Part shown: positions 1-6,686 of the stretch, in pieces
Layout: every line of letters begins with the position of its first letter
How positions within the stretch are numbered: position 1 is the first letter of the stretch
NCBI GenBank assembly: GCA_027623095.1
Contig: JAQBVM010000001.1
Location: 1,745 to 65,744, forward strand
DNA length: 64,000 nt
Direction of reading: 5' to 3'
Source: Verrucomicrobiota bacterium
Lineage (GTDB): Bacteria > Verrucomicrobiota > Verrucomicrobiia > Limisphaerales > SIBE01
The notes under the pieces: generated by a model
The model's input: only the letters and a program-made list of their open reading frames with translations
Told to the model about the DNA's origin: nothing
Database searches by the model: none
Translations under genes and position numbers: made by a program

Positions 1-1730
1 GGGTCGAGGATTTTCAGGGCGTCGATGGCGGCGATGAGGCAGGCGACTTCGGCGGGGGTGAAGGCGTGCGTTTTCTCGGTGTAGGCGAAGAGGTCGTCGA
101 GCTTCTCTTGAATGGCTGAACGTCCGCCCTCACCCCGGCCCTCTCCCCCAGGAGAGGGAGAACCGCCTGCCACTTTCTGGCGGCTCGGAGTCACCGCTTC
201 GAGCTTCGCTTTCAGATGGGCTTTGAGGGACTCGTCCACCATGTAGTCCACGATGGGGCGCGGGGTGTAGAAGGAGCCGGTCTGCTTGCGGGCGGTGGTC
301 TTGGTTTCCTCGTTGTAGGAGGCGAGGAGGTTCTCGAAGACTTTGCCGAGGAGTTCGGGATCGAGCGCAATTTCCTGATCGATGGGGGTGTTCTCCAAGA
401 TGGTGAACTTGTAGCGGTCCAGGATGCGGATGAGGCCGGTGACGTTTTCCTTCCTGCGCTTGGTGTCGTTGTAAGGAGTTGAGAGGTCCACAATTCGCTC
501 AGCACCGAAAAAGAGTTCATTGGGGACAGTGGGCCGCTTCTTAACGTTGCGGGAGAATCCGTCGAGATAACGTTTCTTTTCCGTTTCCTCCTCGGTGCGG
601 TCAAGGCACTCGAAAAGACCGCCATTCAGGAACGGGATGTCGGCGAAGTGGGCGAGCGCGGCTTCGGGCGGCTCCTGAAAGAGAGCTTCGTAGCGGTAGA
701 GGTTGTTGACGTCGTAAGTGCTGCGGTTTTTCTGAAAGCCTTCGTCCTTGGCAAAAACACGGTAGGGCTTGCCGTTGCCGTCTTTGCCCATGCGCTGGTT
801 GAGCGTGGCGAAGAAGAGGTTCTGCAGGATGGCCTGGTAGTAGGTGGAGCTGGTCTCGCTCTCGGGATCGAAGCCCTTGAGAATCTTGGCGAGGTCGGCG
901 GGATGAAAGAGCTTTTCCGGAATGAGATCCTTTTCCTTGAGGAACCAGCAAAAAATGAGGCGCGTGAGCAGGCGAATGAGGCCGGTGGCGCGGCGCTTTT
1001 CGTCGTCGGGATCGAGATCGGCGGGGAACTCGACCTGCGGGAGCGCCCAGAAATACCAGTTGGCAAGTTCCTTATAGAAGCGCTCGTTCAGCAGTTCGAC
1101 GTTGAAGATCTGCTCCCACGCGGCGTGCAACGTGTCGAAATCGGTGATGGGTTTCTTTTGCGGGTGGACGAGATTGGGCAGCGCCAGCGAATCGAGAATA
1201 TCGAGGTGGCCGCGGTGAGTCTGGGTGACATTGATGTCGCGGATCAGGGTGGCTTTTTCGAGAACGTCCTTGTCGGACTCAAGCTTGTTCCGCCGCCGAT
1301 TGATAACAGCGATGGTGAGCCGGCCGTGGTGTTTGAAGAGCGCCATGACGGGCATGGGGAAGAGACGGTTGATCTGCCGGGCGATGGCGGAGAATTTACC
1401 GCGCGCGTAGTCGCTGCCCTTCAGCTCGATGGCGAAGAAGAGGTAGGATTGCAGGAGACCGGCCTGAACCGAGGTGTCGGGGAAGAGACTGGATTCGCGG
1501 CTAAGTTCCTGGTCGGTGAGTTGAAAAAGCAAATCGGCGCTCTTCCACTCGTGGAAGAGCGCTTTGCTCTGGTCAAAGGCATGGCCGGAGCCGAAGAGAT
1601 CGAGGAATGCCGACGGCGAGGAGGCGGCACCGGCGATGAACTTGTCGCTCTTGTAGCCGAGTTTGGCGAGAAGCTGGCGGGCGGCAACTTTGAGAGGCAG
1701 GGTCAGGAAATTCGAGAGGGCGGCTTTCAT
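1..1730 (-). CDS. N6-adenine DNA methyltransferase, Eco57I/type IIG-like (first ~576 codons; continues beyond window start)
   Basis: Absent from the ORF track because it runs off the edge. My translation of the minus strand from ATG at 1730 gives an uninterrupted frame (MKAALSNFLTLPLKV...). It contains LDPELLGKVFENLLASYNEETKTTARKQTGSFYTPRPIVDYMV, the hallmark block of Eco57I/MmeI-type (COG1002-like) gamma N6-adenine MTases. ATGA overlap with the upstream gene at 1727-1730. The AdoMet-binding and NPPY motifs would lie past coordinate 1. Confidence 0.8.
   Translation of the reverse strand, partial: MKAALSNFLTLPLKVAARQLLAKLGYKSDKFIAGAASSPSAFLDLFGSGHAFDQSKALFHEWKSADLLFQLTDQELSRESSLFPDTSVQAGLLQSYLFFAIELKGSDYARGKFSAIARQINRLFPMPVMALFKHHGRLTIAVINRRRNKLESDKDVLEKATLIRDINVTQTHRGHLDILDSLALPNLVHPQKKPITDFDTLHAAWEQIFNVELLNERFYKELANWYFWALPQVEFPADLDPDDEKRRATGLIRLLTRLIFCWFLKEKDLIPEKLFHPADLAKILKGFDPESETSSTYYQAILQNLFFATLNQRMGKDGNGKPYRVFAKDEGFQKNRSTYDVNNLYRYEALFQEPPEAALAHFADIPFLNGGLFECLDRTEEETEKKRYLDGFSRNVKKRPTVPNELFFGAERIVDLSTPYNDTKRRKENVTGLIRILDRYKFTILENTPIDQEIALDPELLGKVFENLLASYNEETKTTARKQTGSFYTPRPIVDYMVDESLKAHLKAKLEAVTPSRQKVAGGSPSPGGEGRGEGGRSAIQEKLDDLFAYTEKTHAFTPAEVACLIAAIDALKILD
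126..165. repeat. GC-rich REP-like hairpin element lying in-frame inside the methyltransferase CDS
   Basis: CCCTCACCCC head followed by a perfect 8-bp stem, CCCTCTCC (139-146), loop CCCA, GGAGAGGG (151-158). On the coding strand it reads GGSPSPGGEGRGEGG. The head and G-rich tail recur in the intergenic element at 47431-47487. Confidence 0.5.
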
Positions 1731-3175
1731 GGTGCTGTTGAAGGATGCCGGGCGAGCCAGGCGCGGCCTTTGGCGGTGAGGCGGTATTTTTGGAGACGGC
1801 TGTTGGGCTTGTCAGGGAGGGTGCGCTCCACCATTCCCTCGGCCAGGGCGGTGTCGATGTAGCGCTCACGAAGGTGGGTTCGGTCGCTAAGCTCCAAATT
1901 TTTAAGGATTTCCGAGTTGCCAAGGGGGCCGGTACCGCCGAGAAGACGAATCAGTACGACCACCGCGACTGGTGGAGTGACTGGTGGGGTGACTGGTGGG
2001 GTGACTGGTGGGGTGACTTGTCTGGTAGGTTCACCTGCGACTGGTGCCGTGGCTTTGACCGCTGCCAAATATTCCGGCCCGAATGGGAACTCGATCCAGA
2101 GATCGTTCGCCTCGTGGCGGAGGCGAGGCTTCGGCGTTCGAGCGTCGCGGCAGGCGGCAAAGATTCGCTGGATTCCACGGCCCCATGTCTCGATCTCGCC
2201 GGAGCGAAAGAAGACGTTGGCAATGGCAGGATTGAAGGGGGCGGAGGCGTGTGCGTCCAAGAGGTTCTTCACGGTCCAGCCGTCGGGGAGCACGCAGGGG
2301 TTCCAGATTTTCAGGCGGTTCTCATAGACTCGGACCTGCACGGGAGCGCCGACGGCGTAGTCACGATGTACGAGCGCATTCAAAATGGCCTCACGCAGCG
2401 CAGGATCCGGAACGGGGTATCGCTCGATGCGCTGGATGCCTTGGTAGGTGATGGCGGCTTTGAGGTATTTGGTGCGGACGAGGTCGATGGTTTTCGCCAC
2501 CTGCGTGAAGAGATCTCCTTGGATCATGTCGTGGTAGGCGAGATCGGATTCGGAGCGGAAGAAGCCGATCTTCACGAAGGCGCCGGTGACATATTTCTCG
2601 GGATCCTCGTGAAATAGCAGCACGGCGGCACGCTTGAGGTATGGGCCTTCGGTGAGCTTGAGTTTTTCGAGGAGGGCGGCCTTGGAAGAACGAAAGTCGG
2701 CAGGATCGAGCCGCCCGCTGGTGCGGGCCAGATCGCGAAACTGGCGGATGGCGGCCGCGGAGAGGTCAGTGGTCTTGACTCCGGGCACCGGCACGCCATC
2801 CCAGGTGCGGCCCTGCCGCCGCAGGAGGAAGCGATCCAGCGCGGCGCCTTTCAGCTCCTGCAAAGTGCTGCCCGTGCGCTGAAAGTAATGGCCGCGGTAA
2901 CTGATGGGGTAAGGGTAAGGCTCGGCGATGATCTCCAGCCAAGTCAGTCCGTTTTCCTCATGGGCATTCACCGACACCAGGATGCCCAGGACATCGCGGA
3001 CTTTGTTGGGAATGTCCTCCAGCAACTTTGCGGCGTCCGGCAGCCCGACGACCTCGCCTTTGTCATTGCGACCGATGTGAAGGACGCCGCCCTCGGCATT
3101 TGCGAAGCCGCAAATCCATCGCAGGAATTCATCCCGCCAGGTTTCCTTCCATTCAAGCTGCTGATGCTCCTTCAT
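1727..3175 (-). CDS. AlbA_2 (Schlafen-like) / HATPase_c_4-like / C-terminal winged-helix protein (COG2865-type, often annotated 'RecG-like')
   Basis: 482 aa. N-terminus EWKETW...FANAEGGVLHIGRNDKGEVVGL (AlbA_2). Middle REAILNALVHRDY...NPAIANVFFRSGEIETWGRGIQRI (HATPase_c_4-like). Tail PDKPNSRLQKYRLTAKG (wHTH). ATGA overlaps at both ends (1727-1730 and 3172-3175). Confidence 0.85.
   Translation of the reverse strand: MKEHQQLEWKETWRDEFLRWICGFANAEGGVLHIGRNDKGEVVGLPDAAKLLEDIPNKVRDVLGILVSVNAHEENGLTWLEIIAEPYPYPISYRGHYFQRTGSTLQELKGAALDRFLLRRQGRTWDGVPVPGVKTTDLSAAAIRQFRDLARTSGRLDPADFRSSKAALLEKLKLTEGPYLKRAAVLLFHEDPEKYVTGAFVKIGFFRSESDLAYHDMIQGDLFTQVAKTIDLVRTKYLKAAITYQGIQRIERYPVPDPALREAILNALVHRDYAVGAPVQVRVYENRLKIWNPCVLPDGWTVKNLLDAHASAPFNPAIANVFFRSGEIETWGRGIQRIFAACRDARTPKPRLRHEANDLWIEFPFGPEYLAAVKATAPVAGEPTRQVTPPVTPPVTPPVTPPVAVVVLIRLLGGTGPLGNSEILKNLELSDRTHLRERYIDTALAEGMVERTLPDKPNSRLQKYRLTAKGRAWLARHPSTAP
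1967..2026. repeat. 12-bp tandem repeat (4 good units plus 1 degenerate) encoding (VTPP)4 linker
   Basis: GACTGGTGGAGT, then GACTGGTGGGGT x3, then degenerate GACTTGTCTGGT. Read directly from the sequence. It lies between the HATPase-like core and the wHTH of the 1727-3175 protein. Confidence 0.9.
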
Positions 3176-6111
3176 GCCTCGTCTTCCTTGATGACGAGCC
3201 AGGTGACGAGTTCGAGGCCGGTCTTTTCGTGAACTTGGTCCCGCGCATCGGGCAGAATGAAGCCGCGACCAGACTGGAGGCCGGAGGCGGCGCGTTTGCG
3301 GAAAGTGGCGGCTAGGGAGTCCGCGGCTTTTTGAAGGAGCGTGTCGTAAGCTTTCATGTTGCTGCCGTGATCGGTCTGTTGGTCGAAAAGACCGCAGAGC
3401 TGGTCACAGACTCCCGCTTTGTAGCGGAGGTCTTCGGAGATGATGTCTTCGATTTCCTCATTCTTGAGCACGTTATCCTCGAAAGTGGCGGAGAGATCCA
3501 CGAGGGCCATGCGGGCTTCAACGCGATTCTTGAGATTGATATATTTATTGAGGTCCTCCGTGGGCCAGAAGTTGACGAGCTGCACGGTATGGCTGGCGCT
3601 GCCGATCCGATCGATACGTCCAAACCGCTGAATGATACGGACCGGATTCCAATGGATGTCGTAGTTGATGAGGAAATCGCAGTCCTGAAGGTTCTGCCCT
3701 TCACTGATGCAGTCGGTGGCTATGAGGAGATCGATCTCGCCCTCCTGCGGCATGGAAGCGATCTTGGCGCGTTGTTTGGCGCGCGGGGAGAAGTTGGTGA
3801 GAATTTGGTCGTAGGCGCTTTCGCCAAACGTGGTGCGGGTGTCCCCGCCGCCGCAGACGAGCGCAATATGGATGCCGAGTTCCTTGCCGCCCCATTCGAG
3901 AAGGGATTCGTAGAGGTAAGTGGCCGTATCCGCAAAGGCGGTGAAGACGAGAACTTTCCGATTCGATTCGCCGAGTTTGTTCGTCGTTGGTTCGGCGACC
4001 TTCGCAGATATAAGTTTCTTCAGGTCAGCCAGCTTGGCATCGGTGGCGGGCGTGACGTCCTGCGCGGCGTTGTAGAGGATGCGGAGTTGGTCTTTGTCGC
4101 GTTTGAGGGCTTTGAGCCACCCGTCGTCGCCGTCGAGCCGGAGGTGATTCAATCGGAATTTCAGCTTGCCGCCCACTTGCGTGGCATCTTCCAGTTCCTC
4201 GTCGTGTCCGGGGTCGTCGAGCTCCAGTTCCAGCTCTTCGGATTCGGGGTTCTGCTTGGGCAAGGCCTGGAAATTTTTGATCTTCTTTTCCAGCCCCTCG
4301 ATCTTGGCGATGGTGCGCTCCATCGTGATCTCGAAAGATTTGACGGAGCTTTCGAGGCGCTTGAGGAAGTTCACCTTCATCATGCCGATGAGGAAAGTCT
4401 CGCGCTGGCCCTGCGTGAACGGAAACGCGCCCTTCCTCTCATACTCGGCCTTGTGAGCCTCCAGGACAAAACGGGACGGGTTGAACAGCGATAGTTTGTA
4501 GGCGGCGATTTCGTCGTTGAGTTTGTCGTAGGAGAGGAATCGCCCCCGCAGGTCGATCTCGGGGTAAATGGAAACGGGCTTCTCGCGCTTCGGGAATCCG
4601 CCGAGCTGGGCAATGGTGGCTTTGTAGTATTTTTGAAGGTGCTTGCGCGAGCGGGCGATCGTTAATTCGTCGAGAAGCTTGAAGAATGCGGCATTGAGCT
4701 TCTCCAAGAGCTCTCCGGTTTTGCGCTCATGGGTTTGCTTCTTAACCCAGATTGAAAAGACCTTTTGCGCACTGGCGAGTGTTTCTTTAAGGCTGCCAAC
4801 GCCGATCGTCTCAGCGAAAGCGTCATCGCGGTTCTCGGTGAGGAAGTAGAGCTGGTTGCGAAGGTCTTTGAGATCGTTGTTGACCGGCGTGGCGGAGAGC
4901 AGCAGTACCTTCGTGCGGACGCCGGATTGGATGATGTCTTCCATGAGCCGCTGGTAGCGACTCTTGCGGATGATGTTCCCTTCCTCGTCGCGCTTGCCAG
5001 GCGTGTTATTCCGGAAGTTGTGCGACTCATCGATGACGATGAGGTCGTAGTTGCCCCAGTTGAGGGTCGCGAGATTGATGTCCCCCGAGTAGCCGGTTTC
5101 CCGGCTGAGGTCGGTGTGGGAAACGACATCGTAGCGGAAGCGGTCCGATACAAACGGATTGAGAAGGCTGTTGGCTTTGTAAACCGTCCAGTTGTCACGC
5201 AGTTTCTTCGGGCAGAGAACGAGCACGCGCTCATTCTTCAGCTCGAAGTATTTCATGACGGCGAGCGCCTCGTAGGTTTTTCCCAAACCGACGCTGTCGG
5301 CGATAATGCAGCCATTGTGGCGGAGGATTTTGTTGATCGCTCCTTTCGCGCCGTCCTTTTGAAATTCGAAAAGGGCTTTCCATATCCCGGTCTCGAAAAG
5401 GCTGGTCTTGCCCAAGTCCGAGTCCGTCTTGCCGACGTCGCCGAGAAATTTCTCGAAGATGTGGAAGAGCGTCTTGTAGTAGATGAATTCCGGGGTGTTA
5501 TTCTCGTAGAGCTGCTTGAGGTAGTTGAGAACGTCCTGCTTCACGTCTTTAACGAGCGTCTCGTTGCTCCAAAGCTCGTCAAACCACTGCTTGAGTTCCT
5601 GGCGGTCGCGGTTGCCGTCCACAATTAAATTCAACTCAATGTTGTTTCCAGCATTGCCGAGCCCGAGGCCGCGCACCGTGAAGTTAGAACTGCCAAGGAT
5701 AGCTTCCTCCATGCCACCAGTGGCTATGTGATACATCTTTCCGTGAAGGAGGTTGGATTGCTTGATTGTCTTGATGTCCACCTTGCGCGTAATCCAGTCG
5801 GCGCACTCTTTGGCAACCCGTTTCTGCCGGAGTTTGTTGGAGAGTTCCAAGCCGTCGGTGTCGATTATGAAGGCTTTTTTCTCGGTCTTGCTCGGGTCAA
5901 GGCGGTTAACGAAGGACGGTTCGCCAAATAGAAAATCGAGGTGGTCGATGGCGTCGAGATGATCTTTGAGCGCGTCGTAGGCGTAGATGGCGAAATACGC
6001 GGAAACGATGGACAGGCGTGAACCGGTCTGGGTCTTCGCTCGCAGGAAGTCGGCGACGGTTCCCCTCGTGTGGTTGTCGCGCACGCCGGAGTTGTTGGTT
6101 GGGGTGGCCAT
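3172..6111 (-). CDS. PLD/HKD nuclease domain fused to SNF2-family helicase/translocase
   Basis: 979 aa. N-terminal HKD-type motif LHGKMYH...ILGSSNFTVRG. SNF2/SF2 motifs ADSVGLGKTYEA (I), VIDESHNFRN (II), LLSATPVNN (III) and QRFGRIDRIG (VI). Confidence 0.9.
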   Translation of the reverse strand: MATPTNNSGVRDNHTRGTVADFLRAKTQTGSRLSIVSAYFAIYAYDALKDHLDAIDHLDFLFGEPSFVNRLDPSKTEKKAFIIDTDGLELSNKLRQKRVAKECADWITRKVDIKTIKQSNLLHGKMYHIATGGMEEAILGSSNFTVRGLGLGNAGNNIELNLIVDGNRDRQELKQWFDELWSNETLVKDVKQDVLNYLKQLYENNTPEFIYYKTLFHIFEKFLGDVGKTDSDLGKTSLFETGIWKALFEFQKDGAKGAINKILRHNGCIIADSVGLGKTYEALAVMKYFELKNERVLVLCPKKLRDNWTVYKANSLLNPFVSDRFRYDVVSHTDLSRETGYSGDINLATLNWGNYDLIVIDESHNFRNNTPGKRDEEGNIIRKSRYQRLMEDIIQSGVRTKVLLLSATPVNNDLKDLRNQLYFLTENRDDAFAETIGVGSLKETLASAQKVFSIWVKKQTHERKTGELLEKLNAAFFKLLDELTIARSRKHLQKYYKATIAQLGGFPKREKPVSIYPEIDLRGRFLSYDKLNDEIAAYKLSLFNPSRFVLEAHKAEYERKGAFPFTQGQRETFLIGMMKVNFLKRLESSVKSFEITMERTIAKIEGLEKKIKNFQALPKQNPESEELELELDDPGHDEELEDATQVGGKLKFRLNHLRLDGDDGWLKALKRDKDQLRILYNAAQDVTPATDAKLADLKKLISAKVAEPTTNKLGESNRKVLVFTAFADTATYLYESLLEWGGKELGIHIALVCGGGDTRTTFGESAYDQILTNFSPRAKQRAKIASMPQEGEIDLLIATDCISEGQNLQDCDFLINYDIHWNPVRIIQRFGRIDRIGSASHTVQLVNFWPTEDLNKYINLKNRVEARMALVDLSATFEDNVLKNEEIEDIISEDLRYKAGVCDQLCGLFDQQTDHGSNMKAYDTLLQKAADSLAATFRKRAASGLQSGRGFILPDARDQVHEKTGLELVTWLVIKEDEA

Positions 6112-6225
6112 TTAGTTGAGGCACAAATTCTTAGCGTTATCCGAATTGACGGAACACTTCCCGCCGTGGGACTCGACCAATTCTTCCGATTGCGCGAACA
6201 TCACGCCTGAACTGCTTTCACCATT

Positions 6226-6300
6226 GTATCCCGAAGCGTCCATGTGCCCGCGCATCGTGTCGGCAGCAACCCAGAGCCGAGCTGCAAAACTATGGGCAGG
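6226..6300 (-). pseudogene. Remnant of a type I R-M HsdM N-terminus
   Basis: Within track ORF 6112..6495(-): SFAARLWVAADTMRGHMDASGY matches the conserved N-terminal LW.AAD.LRG.MDA.EY block of HsdM. Similarity ends immediately after it. The ORF stop abuts the helicase ATG (TAAATG). Confidence 0.4.
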
Positions 6301-6686
6301 GCTGTTTGATTTTGCTTCGGAGTTTCTCGCTTTCGCCACGGGCGCAAGGCTAACGGAGCCGATGCCGGTTGCAAAGCGCTGTTTGATCGCTTTGGAATGA
6401 AGGTTGACAAGCCACCGCGTGATCGAATCACATGGAACGTGCGAAATGCCCGAACCGTTGGCAGATTGTTTGCAACGTGCAATGTCTCTCTTCATATCAG
6501 CCCGCGGCGAATTGCCTGATCATCACGCTCAACGCCTTCGTTTCGGGCGCGAACGATGGAGGACTTCGCCTTGGCCCTCCACAAGCTGAAGGAAAGGGAG
6601 AGCCGAATCACAACGGCGCTGGTTCAAGAGCACCGGAGAGGCGATTCAACTGATAAATGACTTAGGCTATTCCCGAAGCGACTGAA

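Follow-up and report, generated by a model that had tools for sequence, protein, structure and literature searches.

Proteins that join a Schlafen nuclease domain to a GHKL ATPase have been named "Schlatpases" by Kuzmenko et al., who describe 60,692 of them, most being small and ending with or without a C-terminal helix-turn-helix (HTH) domain (bioRxiv 10.64898/2026.05.29.728809). Here we analyse a gene for a protein of this kind, a Schlafen(AlbA_2)-GHKL ATPase with a C-terminal winged helix, in a stretch of 64,000 nucleotides from a Verrucomicrobiota bacterium (GenBank assembly GCA_027623095.1, contig JAQBVM010000001.1, forward-strand positions 1,745 to 65,744), referred to below as the window. 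The gene lies between genes for a PLD nuclease-SNF2 helicase (PLD-SNF2) and an Eco57I-like N6-adenine methyltransferase. We find that it is an accessory cassette at a variable junction of this two-gene, restriction-modification (R-M)-like system and not one of its core subunits. On balance, and by analogy with PrrC and RzAgo, we favour the reading that its product is a Schlafen RNase which is gated by ATP and serves translocating R-M systems as a second-line effector. The combination of Schlafen, GHKL and winged HTH (wHTH) domains and its link to R-M and BREX systems are already catalogued in papers of 2025-2026. What is new here is modest: one more type of host for an accessory family that was already known, and the recognition of the host junction as a cargo slot. 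No new kind of system is revealed.

The mechanism of such a unit is best illustrated by RzAgo, a Schlafen-Argonaute protein (SLFN-pAgo) in which ATP bound to the GHKL domain leads to a tetramer with paired Schlafen lobes and thereby to a mammalian-like nuclease. The tetramer cuts tRNA and causes abortive infection, and the cryo-electron microscopy structure shows E314 and N318 binding the gamma-phosphate and Mg2+ (bioRxiv 10.64898/2026.05.29.728809). The window protein has the same Schlafen-GHKL unit, including the Ex4ExK, GFAN and E-x3-N motifs. However, it lacks the Argonaute core, and its gene lies inside an R-M operon; its sensor must therefore differ from that of RzAgo.

Three surveys have classified related proteins. 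Slfn-HisKinase-HTH proteins make up 19.2% of the prokaryotic Schlafens of Taboada et al. (10.1101/2025.07.24.666596), and Weickert et al. (PMC13462974) call Schlafen-ATPase-DNA-binding proteins "tightly associated" with R-M and BREX as well as with type I CRISPR systems. Rakesh and Krishnan (PMC12839542) list Schlafen-minimal HK-wHTH proteins among "backup suicidal effectors"; for backup endoRNase effectors they count at least 1017 taxa that have BREX and BREX-related loci. These classes, which include clusters 2 and 7 of Weickert et al., share both their architecture and an R-M-like context with the window gene. They differ in their hosts, which are BREX, DUF499-centred BREX-related systems and R-M in general, whereas the window host is a two-gene pair without DUF499 or DUF3780. 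A pair of PLD-SNF2 and Eco57I-like genes is not named as a Schlafen host in the parts of these surveys that we read. Among other Schlafen relatives, Cash and RorSlfn5 are tRNases activated by phage or by a signal (PMC13462974), and tRNA cleavage is an antiviral strategy of eukaryotic Schlafens (10.1101/2025.07.24.666596). The window protein resembles eukaryotic SLFN11, SLFN12, SLFN13 and SLFN14 in its homologous nuclease lobe and catalytic motif, but the eukaryotic proteins have two lobes per chain and a superfamily 1 (SF1) helicase instead of a GHKL domain, and the sequence similarity is marginal (E about 1e-4).

Two further systems resemble the locus in its organization. PrrC, the model suicide nuclease guarded by an R-M complex, is a latent RNase whose gene lies inside the EcoprrI type IC operon and whose activity is restrained by the R-M complex (PMC3874165). 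Homologues of the window gene in type I operons share the slot of prrC, inside the operon and next to hsdR, and the design of an NTPase-regulated RNase would be common to both proteins. In keeping with the PrrC-type arrangement, the predicted nuclease gene is built into an R-M operon both in the window, with start/stop overlaps, and in the type I cases, where it mostly lies between hsdS and hsdR. The two proteins nevertheless show no kinship in sequence or fold, and a Pfam scan of the Schlafen protein returned no PrrC-related family, so that calling it a PrrC-type guard would only mean that it may work like PrrC. The host itself has a precedent in a pair of PLD-SNF2 and a Cj0031-like type IIG methyltransferase that was noted, and left uncharacterised, by Milman et al., who also found a DUF1016 gene directly upstream of another such methyltransferase (PMC9881135). 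The window host consists of these two genes, again side by side, and corresponds to the PADLOC model PDLC01075 "HKD+Snf2"; DUF1016 genes recur as cargo in the loci described below, whereas a Schlafen insert goes unmentioned in that study.

The Schlafen-GHKL-winged helix protein and its operon

The Schlafen gene starts with ATG and is intact and full length, and the reading frames of both neighbours are open (Table 1). Both junctions read tcat on the plus strand, that is ATGA on the coding strand, and the three genes form a compact operon with translational coupling on both sides. The original prediction, made from the letters of the sequence, had placed the gene between a nuclease-helicase and a methyltransferase, given the order of its domains and noted the overlaps with both neighbours; open reading frames (ORFs), Pfam matches and the sequence itself confirmed each of these points.

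All three Pfam domains of the 482-residue protein exceed their curated cut-offs. With PF04326 followed by PF13749, from N- to C-terminus in one chain, it has the arrangement that defines Schlatpases and COG2865. An AlphaFold2 model built with 25 homologues has a mean predicted local distance difference test (pLDDT) score of 82.9, and its sole long disordered stretch (residues 378-400, pLDDT below 50) is the (PPVT)4 linker ahead of the winged helix. The 12-nucleotide copies that encode this linker match each other at 97%, and their number could change through slippage. In Foldseek searches against the PDB, the whole chain matched the uncharacterised structural-genomics protein 3LMM (E 2e-23). 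The Schlafen lobe matched the N-domains of SLFN12, SLFN11, SLFN13, SLFN14 and SLFN5 as well as the SAMD9 tRNase, the GHKL part matched the ATP-binding domains of histidine kinases (ThkA, CpxA), PDK and BCKDK, and the C-terminus matched winged helices of the MarR/ScpB type. A profile search of PDB sequences likewise linked the N-domain to SLFN12, SLFN11, SLFN14 and SLFN5 (E 1.6e-4 to 1.7e-3) and the C-terminus to the Fic protein 4RGL (E 4e-14). The kinship of the AlbA_2 domain with eukaryotic Schlafens, which had been proposed from the sequence, is thus borne out by fold and profile matches.

Residue conservation, scored over 23-25 homologues of 57-85% identity, is strict at both predicted active sites. 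In the motif E3-x4-E8-x-K10 the two glutamates and the lysine are invariant, and D38 is conserved in at least 90% of the homologues. Ex4ExK is the motif that defines Schlafen nucleases (10.1101/2025.07.24.666596). In a profile alignment, E3 and E8 pair with the "ESQSIEFK" of the pig SLFN11 N-domain (PDB 7fex), and the protein has both the Ex4(E/D)xK motif and the third acidic residue of a Schlafen nuclease. In the GHKL domain, E262, N266, D272, G332 and G334 are invariant. The spacing of E262-x3-N266 equals that of the ATP and Mg ligands E314 and N318 of RzAgo. The N-box Glu/Asn pair and the glycine-rich lid of a GHKL ATPase were therefore found at the level of residues as well as of fold. The protein also has a SAFAN-like "GFAN" motif.

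The same data bear on the idea that the protein is a transcriptional regulator which controls the R-M operon through its winged helix in the manner of a controller protein. Database names such as "transcriptional regulator" suggest this role, controller proteins are often part of R-M systems, and the C-terminal wHTH has the MarR-like fold matches that such a role would call for. However, the gene lies in the middle of the operon and not upstream, and 375 of the 482 residues form a conserved nuclease and ATPase unit with invariant catalytic residues. Moreover, close homologues keep the N-terminal unit but differ in their type of winged helix, which is Fic-like_C in some and HTH_24 in others. 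Nor did an operator-like element come to light, although no examination was aimed at one. We regard a regulator of this kind as highly improbable.

The names that homologues carry in databases, such as "RecG", "Fic family protein" and "ATP-binding protein", are misleading. A RecG-like helicase was rejected because no helicase family is among the Pfam matches and no helicase fold was returned by Foldseek; the name "RecG" is a legacy of the description of PF13749. The label of a stand-alone "RecG-like" regulator, said in the original prediction to be usual for this domain order, does exist as a database name but does not describe where the genes sit. Membership of the Fic family was also rejected, since the Fic/DOC catalytic domain PF02661 is missing and only the Fic-like_C winged helix matches. 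Full-length homologues in NZ_CP143861.1 and NZ_CP086384.1 (L161 and L162) are "Fic family protein" in RefSeq, and this naming looks like a systematic mis-annotation. PADLOC and NCBIfam hold no dedicated model for the Schlafen-GHKL-wHTH protein, and the PADLOC matches, which cover residues 14-342 of the protein, concern pAgo and Aga models and there only the Schlafen-GHKL portion.

Table 1. Features of the three-gene operon in the window (positions count from the first letter of the window).
Feature	Position	Strand	Evidence
Schlafen(AlbA_2)-GHKL ATPase-wHTH gene ("Schlatpase-HTH", COG2865 type)	1727..3175	-	482-aa ORF, Pfam, AlphaFold2, Foldseek
Schlafen/AlbA_2 nuclease domain (SLFN_AlbA_2, PF04326), aa 3-108	2852..3169	-	Pfam E 1.6e-10
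GHKL N-box E262/N266, just upstream of the PF13749 core	about 2378-2392	-	conservation
GHKL ATP-binding core (HATPase_c_4, PF13749), aa 276-361	2093..2350	-	Pfam E 8e-21
12-nt tandem repeat x4.3 encoding the (PPVT)4 linker ahead of the winged helix	1967..2018	-	TRF, translation
C-terminal winged helix (Fic-like_C), aa 405-467	1775..1963	-	Pfam E 8e-20; PDB profile match 4RGL
PLD (HKD) nuclease-SNF2 helicase gene, upstream operon partner, 979 aa	3172..6111	-	Pfam, PADLOC, NCBIfam
Eco57I-like (type IIG-like) N6-adenine methyltransferase gene, N-terminal 576 aa, cut by the window start	1..1730	-	translation, Pfam, PADLOC, relatives
ATGA, overlap of PLD-SNF2 stop and Schlafen-gene start	3172..3175	-	sequence
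ATGA, overlap of Schlafen-gene stop and methyltransferase start	1727..1730	-	sequence

A two-gene host with a cargo slot

To the host genes themselves we could assign domains and a closest model, but none of the larger known systems. The PLD-SNF2 protein has a PLDc_2/NgoFVII-type PLD domain followed by SNF2 and Helicase_C domains (Pfam), and its best PADLOC model is PDLC01075 "HKD+Snf2" (E 5e-109), with the DrmD, BrxH, HmaA and DpdE models far behind. We checked the genes upstream in the window and the related loci for components of two such systems; the downstream side of the methyltransferase lies beyond the window. A Type-2 BREX-related (Hma-like) host, which combines a DUF499 ATPase, an N6-methyltransferase, an HKD-SNF2 helicase and DUF3780, was rejected: DUF499 and DUF3780 genes are missing, there is no conserved third or fourth gene, and the HmaA model scored E 4e-24 versus 5e-109 for "HKD+Snf2". 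A class 1 DISARM host, which combines the DrmD SNF2 protein with DrmMI and DrmA/DrmB(DUF1998)/DrmC, was rejected as well. The NCBIfam DrmD model reached 161.8 bits versus a cut-off of 610, and ORF clustering found no conserved DrmA- or DrmB-like neighbour in the related PLD-SNF2 loci. Compared with its relatives, the 979-residue PLD-SNF2 protein lacks about 136 residues of its C-terminal domain. The loss is in frame, with a junction near 3400-3420, and corresponds to residues ~907-1040 of a 1119-residue homologue (L081) to which the protein is 91% identical elsewhere. The motor-nuclease of the window operon may thus be impaired.

The visible part of the methyltransferase has a DUF4391-like region at the N-terminus, and the N6 methyltransferase domain begins within it as well (Pfam). 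Its full-length relatives are 1200-1600 residues long and carry Eco57I and TaqI_C specificity domains. With a TaqI_C specificity domain of its own, the methyltransferase needs no further subunit for target recognition. In its N-terminal half, at residues ~521-540 (window ~110-170), we observed a low-complexity stretch rich in Gly, Ser, Pro and Glu (GGSPSPGGEGRGEGGRS), and one homologue of 1543 residues (L087:11336-15967) has a C-terminal DUF3800 domain.

Using an alignment of PLD-SNF2 proteins, we scanned metagenomes and examined 80 loci. The same methyltransferase lies downstream of PLD-SNF2 in 43 of them, directly adjacent in 31 of these pairs and separated by an insert or gap in the other 12. 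The Schlafen gene is the insert in only two pairs (L114, L121). Of the ten remaining gaps, the eight that were typed hold a DUF1016/YhcG PD-(D/E)XK nuclease (L081, L094), ORF6N (L085), a toxin-antitoxin-like pair of Gp49-like and HTH genes (L086), PIN (L105), an HTH protein (L107), KilA-N (L117) and Fic (L118). In addition, a 23S-rRNA-IVP gene stands between the PLD-SNF2 and Schlafen genes of L002. When the ORFs of the 49 closer loci were clustered, only PLD-SNF2 (49) and the methyltransferase (40) were widely conserved. Direct adjacency in most pairs together with the varied cargo indicates that the core is the two-gene pair and that its junction is a variable cargo slot. Families such as DUF1016/YhcG, ORF6N, PIN, KilA-N and Fic are commonly found inside type I R-M operons too.

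These counts led us to reject the Schlafen gene as a core subunit. They also speak to the proposal that the PLD-SNF2/methyltransferase machine includes the protein as an integral, stoichiometric subunit for nucleic-acid sensing or target recognition. Its domains are of DNA/RNA-binding type, the genes overlap on both sides, and L001, L002, L114 and L121 show the same order of three genes, while L004, L005 and L016 have two-gene parts of it. However, the unrelated genes in the typed gaps and the 31 pairs without any insert argue against it, as does the fact that only 5 of the 80 close homologues examined below have this context. The strict conservation of nuclease and ATPase residues would not be needed by a pure recognition module, and the methyltransferase brings its own specificity domain. 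The overlaps are not particular to this partnership either. Counting 4-nucleotide start/stop overlaps with ORFs of at least 80 codons over the 80 Schlafen loci, we found them at 24 of the 50 assessable upstream junctions and at 32 of the 74 downstream ones, mostly with hsdS and hsdR. Because overlaps are common whatever the partner, they are no evidence for a dedicated partnership with SNF2 and methyltransferase genes. We consider an integral subunit very unlikely. Two arguments of the original prediction fall with it: that the ATGA overlaps point to stoichiometric co-production instead of a passenger gene, and that the protein may take part in target recognition, for which the conserved Schlafen motif points instead to an RNase effector.

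The slot also has practical value. The same two-gene system without an insert, or with other cargo, provides natural controls with which the wiring between Schlafen protein and restriction can be tested, and the junction, being a cargo slot as in type I operons, helps to find further accessory defence genes. On the other side of the pair, 9 of the 49 closer loci (L088, L093, L097, L099, L100, L102, L105, L106 and L112) have a gene for an AAA_23/SMC_N/AAA_15-type ATPase of ~520 residues that abuts or slightly overlaps the end of the methyltransferase gene. The PLD-SNF2 system may thus have this ATPase as a third, optional component. We also considered whether the C-terminal (VTxx)n-wHTH is an adaptor shared with the Fic proteins of the slot, an idea that found no support in these loci. 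Outside the family, a hidden Markov model of the wHTH module matched only short fragments at two loci, L119 and L076. The module is missing from the Fic gene of L118, and the only remaining link to Fic is the 4RGL match. The fragment at L119:2471-2890 is a stand-alone ORF just upstream of PLD-SNF2 that matches only the wHTH module (E 1e-21); it may be what is left of a longer gene or else a small wHTH gene in its own right.

Genomic contexts of the family and a candidate effector role

To see where the Schlafen gene sits in general, we took the 80 best loci from a search of one genome per GTDB species and typed their neighbours by tblastn with the window neighbours and with Pfam-verified type I subunits. 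The family has at least 6926 proteins with E <= 1e-10 among the 8000 candidates scored, and its conservation from phylum to phylum is unusual, with 57-77% identity for the best 120. PLD-SNF2 and/or the window-type methyltransferase adjoin the gene in five loci, all recorded as Verrucomicrobiota (L001, L002, L004, L005, L016), whereas parts of type I R-M systems adjoin it in 39, typically in the order hsdM-hsdS-[gene]-hsdR-ygjP; the remaining 36 have neither context. If only the 37 loci that are flanked by 3 kb or more on each side are counted, 24 are type I, 2 are PLD-SNF2 and 11 are neither. The family thus prefers ATP-dependent translocating R-M systems. For the original prediction, which tied the protein to its SNF2 and methyltransferase neighbours, this means that a clear R-M linkage holds while that particular context is confined to a small minority.

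The neighbours in the 36 loci with neither context include defence genes (GmrSD in three cases, RhuM in two, AAA_15/21, HNH) and also housekeeping genes (GATase, MutL, LysR), and typing them revealed no third dominant context. Annotated plasmids gave independent confirmation of the pattern: we found one homologue in a type I arrangement in Synechococcus elongatus (pIITB7_2: subunit S, the homologue under the name "Fic family protein", subunit R and a SprT/YgjP-type protease), one behind a methyltransferase, subunit S, DUF262 and RelE/HigA genes in Deinococcus radiophilus (pRadio3), and a solitary copy in Runella. Matches in phage collections were confined to unannotated "Bacteriophage sp." faecal contigs with 23-62% identity. 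In a tree built by neighbour joining from residues 1-375, without bootstrap, the copies linked to PLD-SNF2 are not monophyletic but fall into at least two separate positions, with L121 far from the rest and the type I copy L003 among the PLD-linked ones. This tree is only suggestive of repeated movement of the Schlafen gene between R-M types.

Taken together, context and residues favour, if by no wide measure, an accessory RNase cassette that would serve translocating R-M systems as an ATP-gated, PrrC-like second line of defence. The product combines one AlbA_2 lobe, whose Ex4ExK and Asp site is intact, with a GHKL ATPase and, at its C-terminus, a winged helix. By analogy with RzAgo, binding of ATP to the GHKL domain would lead to oligomerisation, and the oligomers would pair single Schlafen lobes into an active nuclease. 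This nuclease may then cleave tRNA and so arrest the infected cell. Co-transcription and translational coupling with the R-M genes would make the protein a backup or abortive-infection effector, as PrrC is in EcoprrI. Two triggers are conceivable: the loss or inhibition of the R-M complex, as in a guard model, or DNA ends or single-stranded DNA made by restriction and read through the winged helix.

A bolder version of this proposal is that the cassette is a portable guard which docks on unrelated superfamily 2 (SF2) translocase-nucleases, namely HsdR and PLD-SNF2, or on their stalled DNA complexes. A phage anti-restriction protein that disables the R-M enzyme would then release the Schlafen protein, which would cut tRNA. 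If true, this would amount to a general, transferable PrrC-like layer and would explain why the gene is spliced by 4-nucleotide overlaps into two R-M architectures; we consider it a doubtful possibility.

Several observations weigh against an effector that is coupled to R-M. No R-M gene could be recognised next to approximately 30% of the well-flanked homologues. The three database homologues that are closest to the protein (P0001, P0004 and P0007, at L164, L166 and L167; 75-77% identity) lie beside R-M fragments (an HsdM_N of 103 residues, an N6_Mtase of 87 residues and a BsuBI piece) and not in intact operons, with split RhuM genes, GmrSD and a Gabija-like pair of OLD and UvrD genes as further neighbours. 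Because these closest relatives stand beside such fragments and other defence genes, the protein may work alone, and at these loci it looks as if the Schlafen gene persists longer than the R-M system that hosted it. The third acid of the nuclease site (D37/D38) aligns with the "GVDD" of 7fex with an uncertainty of one residue, and the deletion in PLD-SNF2 means that the window operon may be partly decayed. From the literature, we found no experiments on an R-M-embedded Schlafen-GHKL-wHTH protein. Weickert et al. leave the mechanism of activation open (PMC13462974), and Taboada et al. report that only two of seven Schlafen genes tested singly, which may or may not have included the HisKinase-HTH type, protected against phage (10.1101/2025.07.24.666596). 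At L164, L166 and L167 we also observed Wadjet-like genes, as read from matches to DUF3323/DUF2399 and SbcC_Walker_B.

The main rival that draws on these points is an autonomous sensor-effector Schlafen that rides R-M operons for expression and spread and has no functional coupling to them. The 11 well-flanked loci with mixed, non-R-M neighbours, the surroundings of the closest homologues, the solitary Runella copy and the other, single-gene Schlafens that defend alone in the survey by Taboada et al. (10.1101/2025.07.24.666596) would all fit it. On the other hand, mere riding does not sit well with the position-specific bias of the family (24 of the 37 well-flanked loci are type I, with the gene typically between hsdS and hsdR), with the frequency of start/stop overlaps, or with recruitment to the equivalent junction of a second, unrelated translocating R-M architecture. 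We therefore hold an autonomous gene to be rather unlikely. The PLD-SNF2 deletion and the R-M fragments around the closest homologues could also be taken to mean that the locus is a decaying remnant whose Schlafen gene has no current function. However, that gene is intact and full length, is 77% identical to its closest homologues and keeps all catalytic residues, and both neighbouring ORFs are open; we give this explanation very little credence. The favoured reading remains an accessory, R-M-linked RNase. R-M-linked Schlafen-ATPases are abundant, with tens of thousands of sequences, and are among the commonest prokaryotic Schlafens.

Surroundings of the operon and further observations

From 6.7 kb on, the opposite strand of the window carries housekeeping genes (DnaJ/CbpA-like, MerR, MlaD, MscL and two-component genes), which puts the start of the operon at about 6111. 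The interval 6112-6686 is intergenic and separates the operon start from the divergent dnaJ/cbpA-like and merR pair. Within it, a 127-residue ORF (6112..6495) has no Pfam family match and is probably not a gene. Consensus scans found no promoter-like site in 6112-6686, and for internal promoters and terminators in the operon they did not exceed chance level. The best matches of all three operon genes are in Verrucomicrobiota and Kiritimatiellales assemblies and in metagenomes, which would by itself make an origin in the PVC group probable.

Finally, two of the Schlafen loci have downstream a giant DUF4011-AAA_11/AAA_12-MTES_1575 SF1 helicase-nuclease of 1805-2084 residues (L008:11644-17061 and L016:12126-18380). 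It is the next gene in L008, and in L016 it follows a 107-residue ORF, at the place of the window methyltransferase. Since eukaryotic group III Schlafens carry an SF1 helicase within the same chain, a split bacterial version of this pairing may exist.

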